21,201 nucleotides of DNA from a bacterium (lineage in GTDB: Bacteria > Sysuimicrobiota > Sysuimicrobiia > Sysuimicrobiales > Humicultoraceae), in NCBI GenBank assembly GCA_041497675.1, contig JBGQGY010000061.1, forward strand, positions 1-21,201, read 5' to 3'. This document shows positions 5,927-21,040 of this stretch, piece after piece. The notes beneath the pieces are model-generated. The model was given only the letters and a program-made list of their open reading frames with translations, was not told where the DNA came from and did no database searches. Both the position numbers and the translations under genes were made by a program. How positions within the stretch are numbered: the first letter of the stretch is position 1; every line of letters starts with the position of its first letter.

Positions 5927-5955
5927 TTGACCACGTGTGTCCGGTGCGGTATCGT
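5927..5955 (+). promoter_or_regulatory. Putative sigma70/sigmaA promoter for the ylxM-ffh-rpsP operon
   Basis: TTGACC (5927-5932), 17 nt spacer, TATCGT (5950-5955) in the ftsY-ylxM gap. Confidence 0.65.
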
Positions 5956-5969
5956 ACCGGAGGATCACC

Positions 5970-5993
5970 CTGTCAAGGAGAGGACCTTTACAG
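5970..5993. promoter_or_regulatory. Imperfect palindrome (candidate operator or SD-masking hairpin) over the ylxM-fusion RBS
   Basis: CTGTCAAGG-agagga-CCTTTACAG, 8/9 complementary, ending immediately before ATG 5994. Confidence 0.55.
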
Positions 5994-6860
5994 ATGCAGT
6001 CCGGTGACCGCGCCCTTCTCGGACGCGACCGCGCGAACCAGATGCTCGATGCCTACGGCGCACTGCTGACAGCGCGCCAGCGAGAGCTGCTGCGCCGCTA
6101 CTATCAGGACGATCTCTCGCTGGGAGAAATCGCCGAACAGGCACGGGTCTCGCGTCAGGCTGTGCACGATACGCTGCGTCGGGCCACGGCCTCCCTCGAC
6201 CGTTTCGAGTCTGCGCTGGGGCTGGTGGGGGGCGCGCGCCGAGCCGACCACTACTTCACGCGTACGCCACGCTCGCCGGAGCGGTTCAGGATCATCCGCG
6301 ATACCTTGCGCGGGCGTCCATGGGCGTTTCGCGTAGCGTCCGGGGTATTTGCCGGGCGCGGCATCGATCCCGGGACGCGGCTATTGATTGAGGCGATGCA
6401 GATTGGTCCGGGCGACCGGGTCCTCGACTTGGGGTGCGGGTACGGGGCGGTCGGTTTGACCGCGGCCGCGCTGGCCGCAAAGGGCGAGGCATGGCTGATC
6501 GACATCAATGAACGCGCGGCGATGCTGGCCCAGATGAATGCGGCAGACCACGGCGTATCGAACGTGCACGTGATGATCGGTAACGGAGCCGCCGCGATTA
6601 GGTCGGAGTGTATGGATGTCGTCGTGACGAACCCACCGATCCGGGCCGGGCGGCGTGCGGTGACGGCCTTTATCGATGACGGCTGGCGCGCGCTGCGGCC
6701 CGGCGGGCGCTTCTACCTGGTCGCCCGTACAGCGCAGGGCGCACAGACCATCGCGAAGCTGATGGCCGCGCGGTTTGGGACGGTCACGCAGGTGCGCGCC
6801 GAGTCCGGCTACCGCGTCTACGAGGCGCGGCGCGTGGCCGCGCCCCGGGAGACACGCTGA
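5994..6860 (+). CDS. Fusion of a YlxM/UPF0122 HTH domain and an RsmC/YbxB-like class I SAM-dependent methyltransferase
   Basis: N-term YGALLTARQRELL..YYQDDLSLGEIAE...VSRQAVHD..RR...L..FE..LGL (YlxM); C-term DHYFT..P, GVF..ID.GTRLLI, VLDLGCGYG, VVTNPPIRAG; sits in the usual ylxM slot; stop overlaps the ffh start (TGATG). Confidence 0.88.
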   Translation: MQSGDRALLGRDRANQMLDAYGALLTARQRELLRRYYQDDLSLGEIAEQARVSRQAVHDTLRRATASLDRFESALGLVGGARRADHYFTRTPRSPERFRIIRDTLRGRPWAFRVASGVFAGRGIDPGTRLLIEAMQIGPGDRVLDLGCGYGAVGLTAAALAAKGEAWLIDINERAAMLAQMNAADHGVSNVHVMIGNGAAAIRSECMDVVVTNPPIRAGRRAVTAFIDDGWRALRPGGRFYLVARTAQGAQTIAKLMAARFGTVTQVRAESGYRVYEARRVAAPRETR

Positions 6861-8304: not shown

Positions 8305-8577
8305 ATGGTCAAGATTCGGTTGATGCGCGTCGGGGCAAAACATCAGCCTTCGTACCGGGTGGTCGTCGCCGATTCCAAGTCCCCCCGAGGCGGCAAATAC
8401 ATCATGCTGCTCGGCTTCTACAATCCTCGGACTGAGCCGTCGGTCATCAAGATTGACGAAGCCAAGGCGCATACGTGGCTCGACCGCGGCGCCCGGCCGT
8501 CCGATTCGGCGCGAGTGTTGCTCCAGAAGACCGGCATCCTGCAACGGTGGGAAGCCGGTCGGACCAAGGCGACGTAG
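8305..8577 (+). CDS. rpsP: 30S ribosomal protein S16
   Basis: MVKIRLMRVGAKHQPSYRVVVADSKSPRGG...LGFYNP; strong GAGGAGGT SD. Confidence 0.98.
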   Translation: MVKIRLMRVGAKHQPSYRVVVADSKSPRGGKYIMLLGFYNPRTEPSVIKIDEAKAHTWLDRGARPSDSARVLLQKTGILQRWEAGRTKAT

Positions 8578-8589
8578 AGATCACCCGCT

Positions 8590-8835
8590 ATGCCCCAGAC
8601 AGATCTGCGGGCACTGGTAGAGTTCCTCACGCGCGGCTTTGTCGAGCGCCCGGAGGCGGTCATCGTTCGATTGTCCGAGCGCGGCCAAGTCGTGTCTATC
8701 GAGATCCGCGTGGCACCCGAAGACGTCGGGAAGGTCATCGGTCGGCGGGGACGGGTGATCGGCGCGATTCGCACGCTGGTCAAGGCGGCGGCCCTGCGAT
8801 CTGGTCGCCGAGTCGTGGTGGAGGTCGTCCATTAA
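8590..8835 (+). CDS. khpA: KH-domain RNA-binding protein KhpA (YlqC)
   Basis: 81 aa; DVGKVIGRRGRVI.AIRT GxxG loop; directly after rpsP. Confidence 0.93.
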   Translation: MPQTDLRALVEFLTRGFVERPEAVIVRLSERGQVVSIEIRVAPEDVGKVIGRRGRVIGAIRTLVKAAALRSGRRVVVEVVH

Positions 8836-8865
8836 CGCGCAGCCGAGGCGCTCACGGAGGGCGGT

Positions 8866-9270
8866 ATGGGGATCACAGTTGTTCGGCCGGTGATGGTGAA
8901 GGCCATCGTGACGGAGACCTTCAAGAGGCAGTACCTGGCCGAACTGGAGGATACCGCGAAGAGGCTGGAATTACTCATCGGCCAAATCGACACGCAGATC
9001 AGGCGGACCGAACTGGAACGGCAGATCACGCCTCAGTCCCGAGCGGTCCGGCAGCAATTGGAGATCGAGCGGTCGCGTCAGGAGGCCGCCCACATGGAGT
9101 TGGCGGCGCGGGTCAAAGAGGCGGAGGCCCTCGAGTTGCAGTCGGAGTTCTCCCAGGGGACCGTCGAGAGCATGGTGGAACTGAGCCTCGGCGACAACTT
9201 CTTTACGCGGCTGGCTCGCGCTGAGATCATCCTTAAGGATGGAATCGTCATCGAGATCCGAGAGAGATAG
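8866..9270 (+). CDS. ylqD: YlqD family protein
   Basis: ITVVRPVMVKAIVTE, central coiled coil, QGTVES.VE...GD and EIILKDGIVIEIR; lies between khpA and rimM; GGAGG SD. Confidence 0.85.
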   Translation: MGITVVRPVMVKAIVTETFKRQYLAELEDTAKRLELLIGQIDTQIRRTELERQITPQSRAVRQQLEIERSRQEAAHMELAARVKEAEALELQSEFSQGTVESMVELSLGDNFFTRLARAEIILKDGIVIEIRER

Positions 9271-12502: not shown

Positions 12503-12880
12503 ATGGCCGCGCCAACGCGTCGAGTCCTTGGTGCAAGTGGTGAGACTGCAGCCGCAGCCTGGCTGGAGACCCGCGGCTACAAGATCATCGCCCGCAACGT
12601 CAGGACGCGGTACGGCGAGATTGATCTGGTCTTACGGCGTGGCGCGCTCGTCGTCTTCGTTGAGGTCAAGAGCCGCACCAGCGACCGCTTCGGGCATCCG
12701 GCCGATGCGATCGTGTGGCGCAAGCGCCGGCGGCTAGTCCAGTTGGCCGAAATGTGCCTGCAGCGGCTGGGGCTGGAACACTGCGCCGTGCGGTTCGATG
12801 TGATCGCCGTTCACCTGAGCACCGACGGCCGGGTGAGGGAGGTGGAGCACATTCCCGACGCATTCAGCGCCGATCCCTAA
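12503..12880 (+). CDS. yraN: YraN family (UPF0102) PD-(D/E)XK nuclease
   Basis: G..GE..AA.WL...GY.IIARN, GEIDLV, FVEVKSR, RFDVIAV, HIPDAF. Confidence 0.95.
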   Translation: MAAPTRRVLGASGETAAAAWLETRGYKIIARNVRTRYGEIDLVLRRGALVVFVEVKSRTSDRFGHPADAIVWRKRRRLVQLAEMCLQRLGLEHCAVRFDVIAVHLSTDGRVREVEHIPDAFSADP

Positions 12881-14316
12881 CGCAGCACCGCCTCGCGGTG
12901 CGCGGGGTCCAGCGCGCCGGCCAGTCGCTGCGCGGCGTCCGTGCCTTGCCGGATGCAATCAGGGATGCCGACGCCGCGGTAGCCGGCGCCCGCCACCGCG
13001 ATGCCGGGGAGCGATCGCAGGCCCGCCTCGATCGCCTCGAGCCGGTCGAGATGCCCCGGCAGATACTGCGGCATGGCCTGCGGCCAGCGCGCGATGTGGG
13101 TGAACACCGGGGTCGCGTCGATCCCCATGAGGCGCGCGAGGTCCGCTTGGGCGGCCGCAGCCAGACGCGCGTCGTCCTCAGCCACGATCGCATCGCGGCC
13201 GGCGCTGCCCAGATAACATCTCAGCAGGGCCAGACCGCTGGGGGCTCGGTCCGGCCACTTGGACGAGACCCAGGTACATGCGGTGATCTGCATCGGCTCG
13301 CGGCGCGCGACGACGAAGCCGTGACCCTTGAGCGGGTGCGCGATCTCCCCGCGCCTGTAGGCCAGCGTCACCGCTGCGGTCGACGCGTACGGGATAGTGC
13401 GAAGCAGGGCGGCCACGCTCGGGGCCAGCGGTTCGAGGAGATCGGCGGTGTTGAAGGCCGGCGCGGCCAGGAGCACGCCGTCTGCGTCGAGCGTCCGACC
13501 ATCGCCCAGGTGCACCGTGTATGGCGCTGCGGTTGTGGCGCGGTCGATGCGAACCACCGGCTGCCCCGTCACGACCTCCGTGCCTGTGAGTGCCTTCTGC
13601 AGCGCGTCGATCATGCCGCCCAGGCCGCCGGCGAGCCCGAGGAACATCGGGCGCCCGCCGCTGCCGGCCTTTGGCGCGCGGCGCCGCTGCGTCACCGCGG
13701 CCAGGATCAGGCTGCGATGGTCTGTTTCCCATTGCTGCAGTTGAGGAAACGTGGCGCGGAGGCTGAGCGCATCGGCATCACCGGCGTAGATGCCGGCCAG
13801 CAGCGGTCCGACGAGGCGGTCGACGGCGGCGCGACCAAGCCTCCGGGCGATGAATGATCCGACGGTCTCGTCGCCGTCCGGCGCGCGTCTCGGCAGCACG
13901 AGATCCCAGGCCATTCGCGCTTTGGCCGCCGGCGACAGCAGGCTCGTGCGAACCATAGGCCACACTTGCGTCGGGATGCCGAGCGCCAGACCCGGAGGGA
14001 GAGGGTGGAGCCGGCCTCGCGCGGCGACGTAGACGGTACGGCCGGGGAGCGTGCCGATCAGTCGATCATTCAGTCCAAGCGCGCGGCAGAGTTCCACCGC
14101 CGCGGGCTTGGAGGCCAGGAATGAGTCTGGCCCGGTTTCGACGACGCAATCCTGGATGCGTTCGGTCCGCACCTTGCCTCCAAGGCGTGCGTCGCGCTCC
14201 ACCAGGGTGCAGGCCAGCGGGAGATCGTGTGGCGTGGGACGCGCCATCAGGGCGTAGGCGGCGGCCAGACCCGTGATGCCGCCCCCGACGATGACGACGT
14301 GGGCGGGCCGACTCAC
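12877..14316 (-). CDS. hemY: HemY-type coproporphyrinogen III / protoporphyrinogen oxidase (CgoX)
   Basis: FAD motif VVIVGGGITGLAAAY, RLGGK, ETGPDSF, GIYAGD...LS, AMPQY..GH, GVGIPDCI.QG. Confidence 0.95.
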   Translation of the reverse strand: MSRPAHVVIVGGGITGLAAAYALMARPTPHDLPLACTLVERDARLGGKVRTERIQDCVVETGPDSFLASKPAAVELCRALGLNDRLIGTLPGRTVYVAARGRLHPLPPGLALGIPTQVWPMVRTSLLSPAAKARMAWDLVLPRRAPDGDETVGSFIARRLGRAAVDRLVGPLLAGIYAGDADALSLRATFPQLQQWETDHRSLILAAVTQRRRAPKAGSGGRPMFLGLAGGLGGMIDALQKALTGTEVVTGQPVVRIDRATTAAPYTVHLGDGRTLDADGVLLAAPAFNTADLLEPLAPSVAALLRTIPYASTAAVTLAYRRGEIAHPLKGHGFVVARREPMQITACTWVSSKWPDRAPSGLALLRCYLGSAGRDAIVAEDDARLAAAAQADLARLMGIDATPVFTHIARWPQAMPQYLPGHLDRLEAIEAGLRSLPGIAVAGAGYRGVGIPDCIRQGTDAAQRLAGALDPAHREAVLR

Positions 14317-15359
14317 GACGCGGAGTGCGCCGGTGAGGTGCGGCGCTCGGCGGCCTCGTGGACCGCGTCGACGACCCGGCGCAGGTGATCGACGGGGGTC
14401 GCGGGGAGGACGCCGTGACCCAGGTTGAAGATGTGCCCCGGCCGGCCGTTGGCCTCGGCGAGCACGTCCCGGGTCGCGGCTTCGACGACCTCAGGTGGCG
14501 CCAGAAGGACCGCGGGATCGAGATTCCCCTGGATGCTGCGACCCCCGATCTGCGCCCACGCCTCCCCAAGCCGTACGCGCCAGTCGACACCGATGACATC
14601 ACCACCCGCGGACGCCATCAGTCGAAGCAATCCCGCCGTCCCCGTGCCGAAGTGGATCGTCGGGACCCCGGCGATCTTCAGCCCGTCGAATAGACGCCGC
14701 ACGTAGGGCAGCACCGACGTCTCGTAGTCTCGCGGGGCGAGCGCGCCGACCCACGAGTCGAAGACCTGTACGACCTGCGCGCCGGCGGCGATCTGCGCCC
14801 GTAGGTATGCCAGCGTCGCGTCGGTGAGCGTATCCATCAGTCGCGCCCACAGATGCGGCGCTCCGAGCAACATTCGTCTGGTCTCAGGCACGTCCCGCGA
14901 GCCCCTCCCCTCGATGAGGTAGCTCCCGAGGGTGAAGGGTCCGGCCGCAAAACCAATCAGCGGAACCGGCGCGGCCCGGCGGATCAGTCGAATGGCCTCG
15001 AGGACGAACGGGACGTCTCGCTCGGGTTCGAAGGGGCGCAGCCGGTTGATGTCTGCCTCCGTGCGCAGCGGGGCGTGGATCACCGGGCCGACGCCTTCCA
15101 CGATCTCGAACTCGACCCCCAAACCCAGCAGCGGCAGCGTAATGTCCGAGAAGAGGATGGCCGCGTCGACACCGAGTTGCTCGACGGGGTGCAGCGTGAC
15201 CTGGGCGCACAGCTCCGGCACGCGGCAGAGGTCGAGCAGCGCGTAGCGCTGTCGCAACGCGCGGTATTCCGGCTGGTAGCGGCCCGCCTGGCGCATGAAC
15301 CAGACCGGTGTGCGGTCCACCGGTTCGCCGCGGCAGGCGCGCAGCAACCGGTCGTTCAC
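14313..15359 (-). CDS. hemE: Uroporphyrinogen decarboxylase
   Basis: PVWFMRQAGRY.PEY, DAAILFSDI, QVFDSW, QGNLDP, HIFNLGHGV. Confidence 0.97.
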   Translation of the reverse strand: MNDRLLRACRGEPVDRTPVWFMRQAGRYQPEYRALRQRYALLDLCRVPELCAQVTLHPVEQLGVDAAILFSDITLPLLGLGVEFEIVEGVGPVIHAPLRTEADINRLRPFEPERDVPFVLEAIRLIRRAAPVPLIGFAAGPFTLGSYLIEGRGSRDVPETRRMLLGAPHLWARLMDTLTDATLAYLRAQIAAGAQVVQVFDSWVGALAPRDYETSVLPYVRRLFDGLKIAGVPTIHFGTGTAGLLRLMASAGGDVIGVDWRVRLGEAWAQIGGRSIQGNLDPAVLLAPPEVVEAATRDVLAEANGRPGHIFNLGHGVLPATPVDHLRRVVDAVHEAAERRTSPAHSAS

Positions 15360-16060
15360 GGAGCGACCCTCGCCGTCACGGGCATGCCGAGCAGCCCGAG
15401 CACCTCGGGGAGCGGACGGTGAATCCCCACCAGGATCGGCGTATCACGCACCGTGTACTTCCGGCCTTCAGTGGCGCGCAACGCCTGGACCAGATCCTGG
15501 AACGCCGTCAGGTCATCGGTCTCGTACGCGACGATGAACTCCTGATCGTCCACGCCAAACGAGTACGCCAGCAACTGCTGCACCATGGGATACTGGTGTC
15601 CGATGCGAATGTGCTCGTTCATCATGCGCTGGCGGTCGTCGCGCGTGCTCAGATACCAGTCGGTCGACTTGACGAAGGGATAGACGATCAGATAGGCGGC
15701 CCGCGTGCCGCTGAACATCGCCTGTTCCTGTACGGTGGGAGTCTTGACGTACTGGGAGTGGCGCACCAGCCCGAGCATCGAGTATGAGACGCTCAGATAC
15801 CGGCCCAGACCCGCCTGCAGCAGACTTGCCGTGGTCTCTTCCATCGCCTGAACCGACGGGCCCAGCCGCCACAACAACACATCGACATCCGCGCGCAGAC
15901 CCACCATCGAGTAGGTGAACGTGCGTACCCGCTCGGCGGCGGTGTCGGCCGCGCCGATGAATGTCGCGCCGTCGCGCTGCCGCACGTCATCGGAGAGCCG
16001 GCGCCAGGACGGGTCGAGTTTCAACGCCAGCACGTGGACAACGTTCCACGGCTCGGTCAT
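15356..16060 (-). CDS. hemQ: Coproheme decarboxylase ChdC/HemQ (chlorite dismutase-like family)
   Basis: YS..GLRADVD.LLW, YPFVK..DWY, RQRMM.EH...G, SFGVDDQEF; located inside the heme operon; ATG 16060 has a GGAGG SD and overlaps the hemB stop. Confidence 0.85.
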   Translation of the reverse strand: MTEPWNVVHVLALKLDPSWRRLSDDVRQRDGATFIGAADTAAERVRTFTYSMVGLRADVDVLLWRLGPSVQAMEETTASLLQAGLGRYLSVSYSMLGLVRHSQYVKTPTVQEQAMFSGTRAAYLIVYPFVKSTDWYLSTRDDRQRMMNEHIRIGHQYPMVQQLLAYSFGVDDQEFIVAYETDDLTAFQDLVQALRATEGRKYTVRDTPILVGIHRPLPEVLGLLGMPVTARVAP

Positions 16061-17058
16061 GCTCGTTCCTCCCGCAGCCACTGCGCCGCGTCGGCCGCCG
16101 CGTACGTGATCACGATATCCGCGCCAGCGCGGCGGATCGCGCTCAGGATCTCCATGACGGCGCGGCGCTCCTCGAGCCAGCCCTGGGCGACCGCGGCCTT
16201 CACCATGGCGTATTCACCGCTGACCCAATAGGCCGCGAGGGGCAGCGTCGTGGCTTCACGGGCGGCGCGGATGACGTCGAGATACGTCAGCGCCGGTTTG
16301 ACCATGACGATGTCTGCGCCTTGCTCGGCGTCGAGCGCGATCTCGCGCAGCGCCTCCCGCACGTTTGGTGGATCCATCTGGTACGAGCGCCGGTCGCCAA
16401 ACTGCGGGGCCGACCCGGATGCGTCGCGGAAGGGTCCGTAGAATCCCGATGCGTACTTGGCGGCATAGGCCATGATCGCGACGTCGGCAAGACCGGCGTC
16501 GTCCAGACTGCCGCGGATCGCGCCGACCTGCCCATCCATCATCGCGCTGGGCGCGACGACGTCGGCCCCGGCCGCTGCGTGCGAGACCGCGGTGCGCGCC
16601 AGGAGGTCCAGCGTGGCGTCGTTGTCAATCTCGTGACCGCGCGCGACCCCGCAGTGACCGTGATCGGTATAGGCGCACAGACACACGTCGGTCATCACGG
16701 CCAGGGTCGGGTGGCTTCGTTTGAGCAGCCGGATGGCGCTTTGCACGATACCGTCATCGGCGTAGGCCTCCCGCGCCTCTGGATCTTTCGTCTCTGGAAC
16801 GCCGAAGAGCAGGACCGCAAGGATCCCCAGGTCCCGCAGACGTCCGGCCTCGCGGACAAGTTCGTCCGGCGAGAAGCGCATCTGACCCGGCAGCGACTGG
16901 ATCGGCTCGCGGACACGTTGGCCCGTGCGAACGAATAATGGGGCGACAAAGCGCGAGGGATCGACGCGCGCCTCGCGGGCCAGCGTGCGCAGCGCGCTCG
17001 TACGTCGCAGCCGCCGGGGACGCTGGGTCAGGCTAGCGAGCAAGGCGGTTCTTGCCAC
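16057..17058 (-). CDS. hemB: Porphobilinogen synthase (Zn/Cys type)
   Basis: RPRRLR, DVCLCAYTDHGHCG, SAMMDG, KYAS.FYGPFRDA, MVKPA, VSGEYAM. Confidence 0.97.
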   Translation of the reverse strand: MARTALLASLTQRPRRLRRTSALRTLAREARVDPSRFVAPLFVRTGQRVREPIQSLPGQMRFSPDELVREAGRLRDLGILAVLLFGVPETKDPEAREAYADDGIVQSAIRLLKRSHPTLAVMTDVCLCAYTDHGHCGVARGHEIDNDATLDLLARTAVSHAAAGADVVAPSAMMDGQVGAIRGSLDDAGLADVAIMAYAAKYASGFYGPFRDASGSAPQFGDRRSYQMDPPNVREALREIALDAEQGADIVMVKPALTYLDVIRAAREATTLPLAAYWVSGEYAMVKAAVAQGWLEERRAVMEILSAIRRAGADIVITYAAADAAQWLREERA

Positions 17059-17812
17059 GATCAGACACCTCCAACAGCGCCTTGATCAATCCGTTAATGG
17101 TATATTCCCTCGCGACGACTCCGGGACGCAGCCCGGCTTCCGTGACGGCGCCCGCCGTGACCGGGCCGATGCAGGCGATCGTGACACGCTCGAGCTCCTG
17201 CCGCGCCGCGCCGAGAAGACGCACGAGCCCACGAACCGTCGATGGGCTCGTAAACACGACGACGTCGACGCCCTGGGCCTCGAACAACCGTCTGATCCGC
17301 GGCCCCGCCCGACGCGGTCCGATCACCGTTCGGTAGGCGGTGACCACCTCGACGGTTGCGCCACGGTGCCGCAGGGCGTCCACCAGCGCCGGTGACGCCG
17401 CATCGGTACGAGGGAGCAGGATACGGCGCCGGTTCACGTCCGGCATCTCGACGGCGATGGCCTCGGTCAGATAGCGTGAGGGGATCATGGCCACGCGGAT
17501 GCGGGCCCGGCGCAGCACGGCCGCGGTTGCGGGGCCAACGGCGGCCCACAACGGACGGGGCGTCGATCTCAAGTTGACACCCAACGCCGCAGCCCGCGCG
17601 ATGCAGGCGCGGGCGCCATTGACGCTCGTGACAATGACCCAGTCATACCTCTTGAGATCGTGCAGGGCCCGATCCAATCGCCCGCCCGGCGCCGGCGGCT
17701 CGACGGCGATCATGGGAACGGCCACGACCCGCGCGCCCAATTTCCGGAGACGGTCGCAGAGCGGGCGGCTCTGCGCGCGCGGTCGCGTGACCAAGACCGA
17801 TCGTCCGGCCAA
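17033..17812 (-). CDS. hemD: Uroporphyrinogen-III synthase (stand-alone; start may be CTG 17836)
   Basis: LAGRSVLVTRP, DWVIVTSVNG, AVGPATA, AYRT, FTSPSTV, CIGPVT. Confidence 0.93.
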   Translation of the reverse strand: MAGRSVLVTRPRAQSRPLCDRLRKLGARVVAVPMIAVEPPAPGGRLDRALHDLKRYDWVIVTSVNGARACIARAAALGVNLRSTPRPLWAAVGPATAAVLRRARIRVAMIPSRYLTEAIAVEMPDVNRRRILLPRTDAASPALVDALRHRGATVEVVTAYRTVIGPRRAGPRIRRLFEAQGVDVVVFTSPSTVRGLVRLLGAARQELERVTIACIGPVTAGAVTEAGLRPGVVAREYTINGLIKALLEVSDRGKNRLAR

Positions 17813-17832: not shown

Positions 17833-18741
17833 TCAGCTCGCCACCTCGGTCATCAGGTTTCGTGCACCTCGTTCGATCAGCTGCCGGCCGAGCTGCTCGC
17901 CGACCCGCCCGGCATCGCGGACCGCGCCGGTGATGCGGTCACGTATGATGCGCGAGCCGTCGGGATCGAGCACCGCCCCATCGAGCAGGAGCGTCTCGCC
18001 GTCACAGACGGCGTGCGCGGCGATCGGGGTGTCGCAGGTGCCTCCCAGCGCGGCCACCATTGCTCGCTCCGCCTCCACGGCGGCGCGCGTCGGAGGGTCA
18101 TCGAGACCCTTGAGGGCGCGGAGAAGATCACCGGCGTCGGCTCGCGCCTGCAGGGCCATCGCGCCCTGCCCGGCTTCGGGCAACATCACCCGGGGATCGA
18201 ATCGCTCGGTGACGCGGTCGGTCAGTCCCAGCCGCGCCAGACCCGCGGCAGCCAGCACGATGGCATCGACCCCACCGGCTTCGAGTTTGCGCAGGCGTGT
18301 GTCGACGTTGCCGCGCATGCCCTGAATCGACAGATCGGGCCGCGCGGCGAGGAGGAAGGCGCGGCGCCTCGGGCTCTCGGTCCCCACGGCGGCTCCGACC
18401 GAGAGCGACCGCAGACCGCGCCCGTCGCGGGAGACCAGCACATCCAAGGGGTCGGCGCGAGGCGGAAACGCCGCGAACACCAGCCCGGCCGTGGGCTCGC
18501 CGTGCAGGTCCTTGGCGCTGTGCACAGCCAGGTCCACGCGCCCCTCGGCAAGCGAGACCTCGAGGTCCTTGACGAACACCCCCGACCCGAGCGTGCGGGT
18601 CGGCGCGTCGGGATGTCGATCGCCCTGCGTCCGGATCGTCACGATCTCGCAGCGGATGCCGCGTTGCGCGAGCGCGTCGGCCACCGATCCCGTCATGGCG
18701 AGCGCGAGCCGGCTCCCGCGCGTCCCGATCCTGATGATCAC
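17833..18741 (-). CDS. hemC: Hydroxymethylbilane synthase (porphobilinogen deaminase)
   Basis: IRIGTRGSRLA, T.GD, DLAVHSAKD, RGNVDTRLRKL, AGQG, cofactor Cys in GGTCDTPI. Confidence 0.96.
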   Translation of the reverse strand: MIIRIGTRGSRLALAMTGSVADALAQRGIRCEIVTIRTQGDRHPDAPTRTLGSGVFVKDLEVSLAEGRVDLAVHSAKDLHGEPTAGLVFAAFPPRADPLDVLVSRDGRGLRSLSVGAAVGTESPRRRAFLLAARPDLSIQGMRGNVDTRLRKLEAGGVDAIVLAAAGLARLGLTDRVTERFDPRVMLPEAGQGAMALQARADAGDLLRALKGLDDPPTRAAVEAERAMVAALGGTCDTPIAAHAVCDGETLLLDGAVLDPDGSRIIRDRITGAVRDAGRVGEQLGRQLIERGARNLMTEVAS

Positions 18742-19391
18742 TGCAGCGCCGCCCGCCGGGCGCCCTCGGGCACAGACCGGTCCCAGGCGCGCAACATCGT
18801 GAGGAAGATCTCGTCCATCACGTCGCTCGTCTCGATCAACGTCTTGACCTGCGCTTCGTCGAGCAGACCGCCCCGACCGCGCGGGTCGGTCACCATCTTC
18901 AACACGAGGTGGCGGAAGAAACCGAATGCCTCGGCGGCCTCCGCGGGGCTGACGTGCGCCTGGTGGAGTTCTTCACCGTACGCTTTGGCCCGGCCAAGCA
19001 GCTCGGTGCGGACAGTTCGCCGCGACGAGGGGTCGGTGACGTAGCGCACGACGGCCTCGAACAACGGCCGTCCATGATCGCGCGCCTTGGTGCGCACATC
19101 CTCATCGAGTGTCGAGAACCAGGCCCGTTTCCGCAGGGGTTTGGCGGGGGCTCCGGCCAGGAGTTTGGCGCTTCGGCGCGCGACGAGCTGACCGAGGTCT
19201 TCCACGCGGGGGACGTCGCGCTGGATCAAGGCCTCAAGATCGTCGCCCAGGAATCGCCGGTGCCCACCGGGTGTCCTAAATGTTCGCACGCGGCCCGTGT
19301 CGGCCCAATGCCGCAGCGTCGCTTCGTCGACGCCCAACAGCGACGCAGCTTCACCCAGCGGCAGCCATCGTCCAGAACGCGTTTTCGTCAT
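18738..19391 (-). CDS. BldC/excisionase-like (MerR-type winged HTH) DNA-binding protein with an uncharacterised helical C-terminal domain
   Basis: WLPLGEAASLLGVDEATLRHWADTGRVRTFRTPGGHRRF at the N-terminus; stop overlaps the hemC start (GTGA); ATG 19391 preferred because TTG 19418 lies within the predicted promoter. Confidence 0.85.
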   Translation of the reverse strand: MTKTRSGRWLPLGEAASLLGVDEATLRHWADTGRVRTFRTPGGHRRFLGDDLEALIQRDVPRVEDLGQLVARRSAKLLAGAPAKPLRKRAWFSTLDEDVRTKARDHGRPLFEAVVRYVTDPSSRRTVRTELLGRAKAYGEELHQAHVSPAEAAEAFGFFRHLVLKMVTDPRGRGGLLDEAQVKTLIETSDVMDEIFLTMLRAWDRSVPEGARRAALQ

Positions 19392-19408
19392 AAACGGATG
19401 TAGCCCAT

Positions 19409-19437
19409 ATTCTATCAAAATCTACGCAATCCTCCAA
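19409..19437 (-). promoter_or_regulatory. Putative sigma70 promoter of the HTH-hem operon
   Basis: On the - strand: TTGGAG (19437-19432), 17 nt spacer, extended TG-a-TAGAAT (19417-19409), in an AT-rich island. Confidence 0.7.
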
Positions 19438-19513: not shown

Positions 19514-21040
19514 ATGCTGGCCACGGTACCAAGCGCGACGATCGTCGGCCTTGACGCGATGCCCGTTTCAGTCGAGGCGGACGTCGGATCCGGGTTGCCT
19601 TCCTTCTCTATTGTCGGCCTGCCGGATGCGGCGGTCCAGGAGGCGAGGGAGCGCGTCCGTGCCGCTATCCGGAACTCCGGATACGACCTTCCCCCGCGAC
19701 GGATCGTCGTCAACCTGGCACCTGGGGATCGGCGCAAGGAAGGGCCGGCGTTTGATCTCCCCATTGCGTTAGCCATCCTGATCGCCACCGGACAGTTGCG
19801 GCAGGAACCCGCGCGGCACTATCTCGCGGTAGGCGAACTTGCGCTCGATGGTTCGCTCCGGCCCGTACCGGGAGTCTTGGCCATCGCGGAAGTGGCGAAG
19901 GCCGGAGATGCGCGGTGCCTGTTCGTGCCCGAAGCCAACGCCGCCGAAGCGGCGGTGATCGACGAGGTGACCGTGTATGCGCTCCCAGCCCTGCGCGCGG
20001 CCGTCGAGCATCTTGAAGGGCGGCGACCGCTCACTCGTGCGACCCGCTCGATGCCCGAGGGAGCCCTCGAGGCATCGTCATCGGTCGACCTGGCCGACGT
20101 CCGGGGTCAGGCAGTCGCGCGCCGAGCCCTGGAGATCTCGGCCGCCGGCGACCTCAACCTCCTCCTCATCGGTCCGCCCGGCGTGGGTAAGACGATGCTG
20201 GCGCACCGGCTGCGGACGGTGTTGCCGCCGCTGTCCCGACAAGAGGCGATCGAGGTGACAAAGATCCACAGCGTCGCGGGCCTGTTGCCGCCCCGCTCCG
20301 GGCTGATGTGGTCGCGCCCCTTTCGGGCGCCCCACCACACGGCCAGCGCGTCCTCGATCATTGGCGGCGGATCGCACCCGCGACCGGGCGAAGTGACGCT
20401 CGCGCACCACGGCGTGCTCTTCCTCGACGAACTGACGCTGTTTCATCTCGACGTGCTCCAGGTGCTGCGCCAGCCTCTTGAAGATGGCTGTGCGGTCGTC
20501 GCGCGCGCCGGCGGCGTCGTGCGTCTCCCCTCGCGGTTCGCACTGGTGGGCGCCATGAACCCCTGTCCGTGCGGATATCGCGGCGATCCGGGGAGGGAGT
20601 GCACCTGCACGCCCGGACAGATCCAACGATACTTGGCGCGTGTCTCAGGGCCGCTGCTCGACCGCATCGATCTCCATGTTGAGGTCCCACGGCCTCCAAC
20701 CGCCGAGGTCCTTGATGGTCACGGGGCTGAGTCATCGCGCATCGTTCGCGAACGGGTCACAGCCGCCCGCGAACGGGCGGCGCGTCGGGCAACCGTGACG
20801 GCGCAGGTCGGCGGTCCACCCCGGGGCATCCTGCGGTGGGGGCCGGTCGAAGGCGCCGCGCTGGCGCTGCTCCGCACTGCAGCGGAGCGGCTGCTGCTTG
20901 GCGCCCGCGCAACGCACCGCGTGGTGCGCGTCGCGCGGGCGATCGCCGACCTCGACGGGTCTGACCTGGTCATGACGTCGCACGTCGCGGAAGCCCTCCA
21001 ATATCGGGTCCTTGACCGCCACGCGCCCCTGCCGCCTTGA
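19514..21040 (+). CDS. comM: YifB/ComM family Mg-chelatase-like AAA+ ATPase (competence helicase ComM)
   Basis: GLPDAAVQEARERV, VNLAP.D..K.G..FDLPIA, Walker A GPPGVGKT, PFRAPHH, LFLDE, NPCPCG..C.C, SGPLLDRID, EALQYR. Confidence 0.93.
   Translation: MLATVPSATIVGLDAMPVSVEADVGSGLPSFSIVGLPDAAVQEARERVRAAIRNSGYDLPPRRIVVNLAPGDRRKEGPAFDLPIALAILIATGQLRQEPARHYLAVGELALDGSLRPVPGVLAIAEVAKAGDARCLFVPEANAAEAAVIDEVTVYALPALRAAVEHLEGRRPLTRATRSMPEGALEASSSVDLADVRGQAVARRALEISAAGDLNLLLIGPPGVGKTMLAHRLRTVLPPLSRQEAIEVTKIHSVAGLLPPRSGLMWSRPFRAPHHTASASSIIGGGSHPRPGEVTLAHHGVLFLDELTLFHLDVLQVLRQPLEDGCAVVARAGGVVRLPSRFALVGAMNPCPCGYRGDPGRECTCTPGQIQRYLARVSGPLLDRIDLHVEVPRPPTAEVLDGHGAESSRIVRERVTAARERAARRATVTAQVGGPPRGILRWGPVEGAALALLRTAAERLLLGARATHRVVRVARAIADLDGSDLVMTSHVAEALQYRVLDRHAPLPP

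Follow-up and report, generated by a model that had tools for sequence, protein, structure and literature searches.

A BldC-type helix-turn-helix protein with a predicted globin-fold domain heads a hem operon and is a candidate regulator of tetrapyrrole biosynthesis

What is the task of the small protein whose gene stands first in the hem operon of a 21,201-nucleotide (nt) stretch of bacterial DNA, contig JBGQGY010000061.1 of GenBank assembly GCA_041497675.1? This whole stretch is called the window in the following. It comes from a 3.97-Mb genome (98.6% complete, G000 in our list) from an uncultured environmental bacterium of a small GTDB phylum of 94 species, whose members are labelled Armatimonadota or 'Candidatus Fervidifonticultor' in NCBI records. 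An earlier reading of the bare letters (the sequence-only reading) had described the product as a BldC-like helix-turn-helix (HTH) domain followed by a helical sensor domain, and had proposed that it could sense heme or coproheme and feed back on its synthesis. From the analysis presented here we regard the protein (P0001, the regulator) as a one-component transcription factor with tetrapyrrole (heme) biosynthesis as its dedicated target. For this reading as a whole, including the full mechanism proposed below, we estimate a probability of about 0.62.

The regulator gene is translationally coupled to hemC and heads a seven-gene hem operon, in which hemC, hemD, hemB, hemQ, hemE and hemY follow it (Table 1). 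Its TGA stop codon shares nucleotides with the GTG start codon of hemC, in the form GTGA, which bears out the earlier description of the gene as the first of its operon. Successive genes overlap by up to 26 nt, as the open reading frames (ORFs) were called, or are separated by gaps of at most 20 nt, and a generic promoter and terminator scan found no terminator inside the operon. An alternative TTG start codon at 19418 lies inside the conserved upstream element described below and is not backed by the N-termini of homologues. The RNA data consist of four runs that cover fractions of 0.06-0.21 of the stretch, as contigs, from which a transcript start cannot be deduced. The full-length architecture was found in 206 of 268 homologous proteins retrieved, and 437 representative clusters match the regulator at E ≤ 1e-10; therefore the joining of the two domains is not a matter of chance. 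A search for look-alikes returned the same architecture only, with scores of 0.81-0.86 that serve as leads only.

The N-terminal part is a winged HTH of the BldC/HTH_17 type. A Pfam search placed HTH_17 (PF12728) on residues 12-58 at E 4.4e-10 (40.1 bits against a threshold of 27), together with MerR and MerR_1, and all of the 149 aligned homologues carry an HTH_17 match. Against the BldC family model NF033787 the regulator scored 49.8 bits, below the NCBIfam cut-off of 77. With a profile of the 149 full-length homologues, the crystal structures of BldC on DNA (6amk and 6ama) were matched at E 1e-14, the match being confined to the HTH, and the HTH of the structural model described below was superimposed on 6amk with a Z-score of 8.8 and a root-mean-square deviation (rmsd) of 1.1 Å over 52 residues. 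These matches confirm the BldC-like N-terminus that had been read from the letters, and the motif given for it, W29...G33.....R39TPGGHRRF47, is present. In the 149-homologue alignment R27, W29, T40, G42 and R45 are invariant; W29, H44, R45, R46 and the wing T-x-G-G-H-R-R-F/Y are invariant or near-invariant, in keeping with the basic His-Arg-Arg wing and the recognition-helix Trp that mark the BldC family. According to the available text on BldC, its wing residues His46, Arg47 and Arg48 enter the AT-rich minor groove, and each protomer binds one direct repeat AATTXXXX(C), polymerising head-to-tail (PMC5859096). A match to the CarH equivalog model (NF052513, E 2.6e-4, 20.4 bits against 400) was rejected as an effect of the shared HTH.

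A candidate operator made of three direct repeats precedes the regulator gene. Each of the 20 close loci has the element, AGGATT/AGAYTT/AGAAT with an exact 10-bp period, and its distance to the start codon is fixed; elsewhere the intergenic DNA of these loci has diverged. It starts 53-87 nt upstream of the codon for the conserved Trp9 in the 20 close loci, and 42-46 nt before the ATG in seven of them (the window, L003, L004, L005, L006, L011 and L017); in the window it ends 16 nt before the regulator ATG. Positions G5, A6, T7, T8, A13, G14, T17, A23, G24, A25 and A26 are invariant in all 20, and the sites of L003 and L008 consist of near-perfect tandem CAGGATT copies 10 bp apart. The repeats are direct, in one orientation, and not palindromic. 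The third repeat coincides with a −10-like hexamer, TAGAAT (19414-19409), with a weak −35-like hexamer 17 nt upstream; the generic scan called no sigma-70-type promoter at the candidate operator. When the 3.97-Mb genome was scanned with a weight matrix of the element, a single site was obtained at 45.5 bits, the next best reaching 14.0. A wider regulon is not visible with this three-repeat matrix, which found no other site above 14.0 bits and does not model sites with fewer or degenerate repeats.

The same phasing recurs at distant members of the family. The strict pattern AG..TT....AG..TT was searched in the 150 nt upstream of 77 distant homologues, and it occurred on the gene strand in 24 of them and on the opposite strand in none (0/77). 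As controls, 200 dinucleotide shuffles gave 0.18 +/- 0.41 loci (maximum 2), and the pattern was present in 3 of 4296 other segments taken from these loci. The three-repeat version was found at 10 of the 77 distant loci, versus 0 in all controls.

Another kind of copy was noted at some loci. L027, L028, L044, L056, L066, L068, L077 and L088 carry, in addition to the direct repeats, an AT-rich copy of the AAAATCT type that runs in the opposite direction. It lies about 40-60 nt beyond the direct repeats on their upstream side, 60-120 nt upstream of the homologues, and suggests a second site or DNA looping.

Are the relatives of the regulator linked to tetrapyrrole genes as well? Among close relatives (61-77% identity), hemC lies directly downstream in 16 of 19 genome loci; in the remaining three, the contig breaks off within the gene in two cases and leaves only 385 nt in the last. 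Distant relatives were taken from a metagenome profile scan, as the best 80 of 570 confirmed relatives. Of these 80, 78 are 28-43% identical to the regulator, and 55 of the 78 loci were testable, that is, a same-strand ORF of at least 100 residues starts within 3.3 kb downstream. Tetrapyrrole genes follow on the same strand in 26 of the 55. The hem linkage of homologues, on which the sequence-only reading had staked its proposal, thus holds far outside the clade of the window. Several types of distant loci can be told apart: hemA alone or hemA-hemC-hemD-hemB, with hemQ after hemB in L023; sirC-hemA, with or without hemC-cobA/hemD-hemB; and siroheme-decarboxylase-like ahbAB-sirC-hemA-hemC. hemC is directly downstream in one distant locus. 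The linkage spans the common trunk plus at least two terminal branches of the tetrapyrrole pathway. Because relatives also head hemA/sirC and ahbAB operons, a link to the coproporphyrin-dependent pathway in particular is not supported. At L048 (5621-7760), the regulator homologue and hemA are separated by two radical-SAM genes, which may represent AhbC/AhbD-type steps of the siroheme-dependent heme pathway.

Within the GTDB phylum of the window, 78 of 94 genomes match the regulator profile at E ≤ 1e-15. Distances to hemA were obtained by crossing two coordinate sets by hand. In 16 phylum genomes (one of them, G017, unpublished) a same-strand hemA starts no more than about 150 nt downstream, and in 11 further ones hemA is 2.8-3.4 kb downstream; for 7 further regulator copies (two in G042) it is 8-11 kb off on the same contig. 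In the topology of a midpoint-rooted FastTree tree of 97 homologues, hem-linked members occur in at least five deep branches. Upstream of the distant homologues, the neighbouring genes have no conserved function; among them are ABC1 kinases, DinB and riboflavin genes. In family f5 (including G085, G089, G090 and G091), hemA was found in 12 of 12 genomes and the matches to the regulator profile are HTH-only, covering query positions 13 to 65-92; the globin-coupled form seems to be absent there.

This synteny bears on the alternative that the regulator is an unrelated neighbour, excisionase-like or nucleoid-associated, with no role in hem expression. Its database name is 'excisionase family DNA binding protein', and the excisionase domain model TIGR01764 matches at 31.8 bits, above the cut-off of 28.8; this model spans the shared HTH only. 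Excisionases are found in a mobile element beside an integrase, whereas hem genes, yifB and housekeeping genes surround the regulator, and the window holds neither an integrase nor a mobile-element context. Together with the translational coupling to hemC, the deep hem synteny and the conserved promoter repeats, this leaves an unrelated neighbour with hardly any credit, and it is the least probable of the explanations considered.

The second question is what the C-terminal domain might be. An AlphaFold2 model was built from the homologue alignment (predicted local distance difference test, pLDDT, 90.8; predicted template-modelling score, pTM, 0.74), in which the winged HTH of residues 9-59 is followed by six helices, with just the short helix 49-59 between the wing and the globin domain. 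Residues 60-217 of the regulator gave no Pfam match, even at E ≤ 10. Foldseek against the PDB returned nothing at E ≤ 1e-3, and its rows were HTH and weak globin/phycocyanin matches only; therefore the wide search of VIA-align was needed to see the fold. In this exhaustive search with residues 63-207, the top match was pXO2-61 (3pmc_B; Z 13.3, rmsd 2.4 Å, 131/132 residues aligned). The heme sensor globins DosC, BpeGReg, AfGcHK and GsGCS matched at Z 10.3-10.8, MtR (3zta) at 10.3, RsbR-N (2bnl) at 9.8 and the N-domain of MabR (9fb1) at 9.4.

Because arrangement alone can bring helical models to about Z 13, independent evidence from sequence was sought. RsbRD_N (PF14361) is the sole recurring non-HTH Pfam family, matched by 15 of the 149 homologues (best E 3.8e-4); Rsbr_N is matched by 5 of the 149. 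A same-phylum orthologue in G066 exceeds the RsbRD_N cut-off (27.1 versus 24.3 bits), and the orthologue of G068 reaches 23.9 bits. A C-domain-only profile of 95 sequences was then compared with 11 real RsbRD_N domains, taken from STAS, GGDEF and kinase proteins of the same phylum, and hhalign aligned the two sets with 88% probability (E 3e-6, 103 columns). Taken together, these results predict with high confidence a globin fold homologous to RsbRD_N and of the non-heme class. The suggestion of globin-like/RsbR-N folds in the sequence-only reading was therefore right, on the strength of both the fold matches and the RsbRD_N homology.

The photocobilin globins 8j2w and 8j2y were among the matches too (Z 8.8 and 7.8), and one may ask whether the regulator is a light sensor, whose globin binds a bilin as in photocobilins and tunes porphyrin synthesis to avoid photodamage. 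A 327-residue 'putative cobalamin binding protein' (8jbs) has a TPGGHRRF-type HTH (E 1.1e-10), and photoglobins are reported to be fused to HTH_17 and MerR domains in the accessible part of one source (PMC8717448); for SasPcob, an Asp and a Trp are described as key to bilin binding in that of another (PMC10979010). CarH/LitR and photocobilins (5c8d, 8j2w, 8j2y, 8jbs) likewise place a tetrapyrrole-binding sensor after a MerR/HTH_17-type domain, but they need a B12-binding Rossmann domain and a four-helix bundle and are light-responsive. The regulator has no B12-binding domain: neither B12-binding nor B12-binding_2 gave a Pfam match in it or in its 149 aligned homologues. In addition, the photocobilin match is weaker than those to RsbR-type and sensor globins. 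A role as light sensor seems very improbable.

To see which ligand the sensor domain might hold, the residues conserved in it were compared between homologues. All the motifs pointed out earlier are present, W91FSTLDE..R100...R104DHGR108.LF, A135KAYGEELHQAHVS..EAAEAFGFFRHLV and D193EIFL.ML.AW. Conserved in all context groups are W91, R104, G107, R108, R124, Y138, G139, F156, F159, R160 and D193, and in the hem and HAD groups R100 as well; R104, R108, R124, Y138, R160 and D193 stay near-invariant across homologues less than 30% identical. The four His on which the idea of heme sensing leaned (H106, H143, H146 and H161) are indeed there, but none of them is conserved. H161 is found in 75% of the close clade only, and distant hem-linked homologues most often have Arg there (50%); H106 is found in no more than 65% of the close clade and in no other group; the close-clade residues most often seen at positions 143 and 146 are R and G, and H143 and H146 are variable. 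The regulator has no Cys. Without a conserved His or a Cys, neither a classical His-ligated heme site nor a Cys-Pro heme-regulatory motif is therefore supported. Judging from the alignments, classical His-ligated heme binding by this domain is unlikely, and the His-based rationale is weakened accordingly.

The candidate pocket residues would be R100, R104, R108, R124, R160, Tyr138, Trp91 and Phe156/159. Since this putative pocket is rich in Arg and aromatic residues and lacks a conserved His or Cys, it would suit a carboxylate-bearing ligand. All tetrapyrroles of the pathway bear two to eight carboxylates, and a carboxylate-bearing tetrapyrrole is a plausible ligand; the genomic context, too, points towards a product of the pathway. 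Phycobiliproteins and photocobilins, both of globin fold, are described as holding a tetrapyrrole without a His ligand, biliverdin in the case of photocobilins, in the accessible text of one report (PMC10979010). We consider a tetrapyrrole the likeliest sensor ligand of those weighed, although its probability stays somewhat below even; another anionic metabolite seems rather unlikely, and a sensor domain with no ligand at all improbable.

If the ligand is not a tetrapyrrole, the regulator might still control the hem operon while its globin senses a fatty acid, an acyl compound or another anionic metabolite, and heme synthesis would be coupled to the membrane or metabolic state instead of being under end-product feedback. 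The best fold match being the non-heme sensor pXO2-61, the homology to RsbRD_N, the lack of a conserved His or Cys and the paralogous subfamilies that adjoin unrelated genes all fit such a ligand. For RsbR-type globins, one source states that a fatty acid is potentially bound by a conserved Arg, which is a structural analogue of the proximal His (PMC8717448). On the other side, the recurrent partners across three pathway variants share tetrapyrrole chemistry only, five conserved Arg together with aromatic residues exceed the need of one fatty-acid carboxylate, and phycobiliproteins and photocobilins can do without His. We regard a non-tetrapyrrole signal as unlikely, yet as the most serious of the alternatives.

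It is also conceivable that the globin domain is a ligand-free oligomerisation module for cooperative binding, which would make the protein a constitutive autoregulator or a promoter-architecture factor. To our knowledge, the ligands of the RsbR N-domains of B. subtilis remain undefined. BldC, as far as the available text on it goes, functions without an effector domain (PMC5859096). The near-invariant polar and charged residues, however, fit a binding site better than a packing interface, and a regulator without feedback would probably be unusual for a costly, phototoxic pathway. Such a module seems improbable.

Several points weigh against the reading of the regulator as a dedicated, tetrapyrrole-responsive factor. 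First, 29 of the 55 testable distant loci have non-tetrapyrrole genes downstream, namely HAD hydrolase-dnaN in 8 and, among the rest, cyclases, Fe-ADH, molybdenum oxidoreductases and HTH-cupin genes; therefore the family as a whole is not hem-restricted. The non-hem loci other than HAD-dnaN fall mostly into separate clades. Secondly, the counts overstate independence, because the loci are interrelated, with a few near-duplicates among them. Thirdly, no residues specific to hem-linked members were found in the alignments, and the sensor domain of the homologues has neither a conserved His nor a conserved Cys. The closest fold relatives are non-heme globins, and the fatty acid potentially bound by the RsbR-type family would make a non-tetrapyrrole ligand the default for the fold class. 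FFR160 is invariant and belongs to the fourth core helix, where hhalign pairs it with the conserved basic residue of RsbRD_N; from helix order and this register, R160 would be the RsbR-type conserved Arg at the proximal-His position. The C-domain of the regulator itself is without any Pfam match, and the C-domain profile gave no meaningful match to solved structures (best E 0.024, to a designed binder). Finally, the preference for repression over activation in the mechanism below comes from the position of the repeats alone.

For the regulator as a dedicated factor of tetrapyrrole biosynthesis, the following mechanism is proposed. Several protomers would bind the promoter repeats head-to-tail through their HTH domains, as BldC does, from −35 to −10. 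Because the repeats cover this region, the most likely effect of the regulator on its own operon is repression; the alternative would be activation through distortion of the DNA, as in MerR. The globin domain would bind a small molecule, whose occupancy would alter oligomerisation or DNA affinity. It might perhaps dimerise like sensor globins, with the ligand changing cooperativity. Response regulators bind direct repeats through flexibly linked domains, and the mechanism proposed here is similar. The feedback signal would be heme or a porphyrin(ogen) intermediate, held by contacts between propionates and Arg, perhaps with a Tyr, and with no proximal His. Feedback of this kind is our best guess because the regulated genes share just the common tetrapyrrole trunk, and end-product co-repression is the usual logic for a biosynthetic operon.

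Both modules of the regulator have known counterparts, and the comparison shows where it departs from each. BldC of Streptomyces has the same MerR-like winged HTH with a GGHRR wing, and the direct repeats found here, whose core is ATT and whose period is 9-10 bp, resemble the BldC sites AATTXXXX(C). BldC is, however, a 68-residue HTH-only protein that controls development, whereas the regulator adds a globin fold of about 150 residues, and its recognition-helix R27 lies one position earlier than Arg30 of BldC. Classical MerR proteins have a palindromic operator, a long promoter spacer and a coiled-coil helix, in contrast to the direct repeats and the short helix 49-59 of the present case. The RsbR-type non-heme globins (RsbRD_N, Rsbr_N, pXO2-61, RsbR-N 2bnl, MtR 3zta) have the same fold as the sensor domain and likewise conserve a basic residue in the equivalent of the globin F helix, but there the globin is N-terminal, with STAS, GGDEF or kinase outputs, or stands alone, while here it is C-terminal to an HTH. 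The heme globin-coupled sensors (DosC 4zva, BpeGReg 4uiq, AfGcHK 5ohe, GsGCS 2w31, HemAT 1or4) match in fold at Z 8.6-10.8 and likewise combine sensor and output domain in one polypeptide. They bind heme b through a proximal His (F8), whereas the regulator has no conserved His; their globin is N-terminal, and the order is reversed here (HTH 9-59, globin 63-207), with an HTH as output.

A transcription factor with a non-heme globin is known in MabR (Rv2242) of Mycobacterium tuberculosis, which differs in having an N-terminal globin, a domain resembling GGDEF and a C-terminal PucR-type HTH; from the accessible text, it is confined to Actinomycetes and controls mycolic-acid genes (PMC11617747). 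The known heme-synthesis regulators are built otherwise. Rex of Streptomyces, in rex-hemACD, heads a hem operon as the regulator does, and Irr is another regulator of heme synthesis. HrrSA/ChrSA, PerR, IdeR, SpxA1 and HemX share with the regulator the transcriptional control of hem genes, but neither they nor Rex, Irr and FG214 have a BldC-type HTH or a globin sensor. FG214, from an Armatimonadetes species, is described in the available part of its report as a one-component HTH protein that binds heme through a PAS domain (PMC13060918).

The coordinates of the regulator gene, its domains, the candidate operator and the other genes of the operon are collected in Table 1.

Table 1. Positions of the regulator gene, its domains, the candidate operator and the genes of the hem operon in the window
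Feature	Position	Strand	Evidence or remark
Regulator gene (P0001), 217 aa, ATG start	18738..19391	−	Stop codon 18738-18740 overlaps hemC start
BldC/HTH_17-type winged helix-turn-helix, residues 9-59, wing T40-P-G-G-H-R-R-F47	19215..19367	−	Pfam, BldC structures
Predicted globin-fold sensor domain, RsbRD_N / non-heme type, residues 63-207	18771..19205	−	AlphaFold2, 3pmc_B, hhalign
Candidate operator, three direct repeats, 10-bp period	19408..19433	−	20/20 close loci; unique in genome
Operator repeats	AGGATT 19433-19428; AGATTT 19423-19418; AGAAT 19413-19409	−	
hemC (hydroxymethylbilane synthase)	17833..18741	−	TIGR00212 304.5 bits; GTGA overlap with regulator
hemD (uroporphyrinogen-III synthase)	17033..17812	−	PF02602 E 3.8e-60
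hemB (porphobilinogen synthase)	16057..17058	−	NF006762 483 bits
hemQ/chdC-like gene (Chlor_dismutase)	15356..16081	−	PF06778 E 2e-54; NF042928 125.6 bits, below cut-off 235
hemE (uroporphyrinogen decarboxylase)	14313..15359	−	TIGR01464 406.3 bits
hemY/cgoX (proto/coproporphyrinogen oxidase family), last gene of the operon	12877..14316	−	TIGR00562 310 bits

Some further observations concern the surroundings of the operon and of its homologues. Divergent from the regulator gene and 122 nt away lies a gene for a YifB-family Mg-chelatase-like AAA ATPase, 19514-21040 (+). Of the close loci with upstream DNA, 8 have yifB within about 100-300 nt and the others at a distance of at least 3 kb; the two genes are therefore not a conserved pair. 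The rest of the window carries housekeeping genes on the opposite strand (smc, ftsY, ffh, rimM, trmD, lepB and rnhB). Between ftsY and ffh, 5937-6860 (+) encodes a YlxM/p13-like HTH (UPF0122) fused to an MTS-type methyltransferase, 307 residues in all; the YlxM/p13-like HTH is usually a small stand-alone protein of about 110 residues. Between ffh and rimM, 8475-9224 (+) is a 249-residue ORF with no Pfam match at E ≤ 1e-5, at a place where, from the usual gene order, rpsP and a KH-domain gene would presumably be expected.

Among the distant loci, the HAD-dnaN group (L032, L047, L060, L067, L072, L075, L078 and L095) nests within hem-linked clades; at L095 the HAD gene alone was identified, not dnaN. 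Riboflavin genes (ribBA, ribH, ribE) lie upstream in L032, L047, L060, L067 and L078, and a gene for a DinB-type polymerase lies immediately upstream in L060 and L075. The strict phased-repeat pattern was found upstream of the regulator gene in 3 of these 8 loci.

The supply of 5-aminolevulinate is a separate matter. The window genome (98.6% complete) has hemB, hemC, hemD, hemE, hemY, hemQ and a ferrochelatase gene, and a search of the whole genome for glutamyl-tRNA reductase (PF05201) gave no match. Its best 5-aminolevulinate-synthase-like genes belong to the BioF/Kbl family. Five hemL-like paralogues score 285-399 bits, all under the hemL equivalog cut-off; two of them, tested further, score over the cut-off of the glutamate-1-semialdehyde (GSA)-aminomutase subfamily model. 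The coordinates for this observation are C9:46525-47793, C163:3677-4930, C104:10377-11633, C116:2015-3193, C37:25089-26183; C76:6076-7146; C12:11114-11986. GlutR_N is also missing from every genome of the phylum genera g1, g2, g21 and g26.

The regulator is new in the sense that two known modules occur in a new combination and in a conserved, specific context. The sequence-only reading knew of no characterised regulator of such architecture, and our literature search likewise found no HTH_17-globin regulator of hem genes described, supplements and subscription-journal papers lying outside its range. In the available part of a 2024 review of the coproporphyrin pathway, the regulators given are HrrSA, PerR, IdeR and SpxA1 plus several 'unknown' entries, with no BldC-HTH/globin type among them; transcriptional control of heme synthesis is presented there as known in few model bacteria, with no unifying regulator (PMC10991733).

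For several poorly studied phyla, the family offers a concrete and testable candidate for a heme regulator, in the form of a small soluble protein with a defined 26-bp candidate target and few candidate ligands. Tentatively, the regulator may be the first example of a type of globin-coupled transcription factor that is widespread and in which a BldC-type head is joined to a globin of the non-heme class; an Arg/Tyr pocket with no His ligand would bind heme or a porphyrin(ogen) intermediate directly, and the protein would polymerise on 10-bp direct repeats and shut off tetrapyrrole synthesis. We hold this to be possible rather than probable. If true, it would be the missing regulator of end-product heme feedback in the Armatimonadota-labelled phylum, Chloroflexota and other lineages, and would show the globin fold reading tetrapyrroles in a new manner. 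The family would add a DNA-binding output to the globin-coupled sensors and would put head-to-tail DNA binding of the BldC type under small-molecule control. Should the ligand be a tetrapyrrole, the protein might also serve as a compact heme or porphyrin biosensor.

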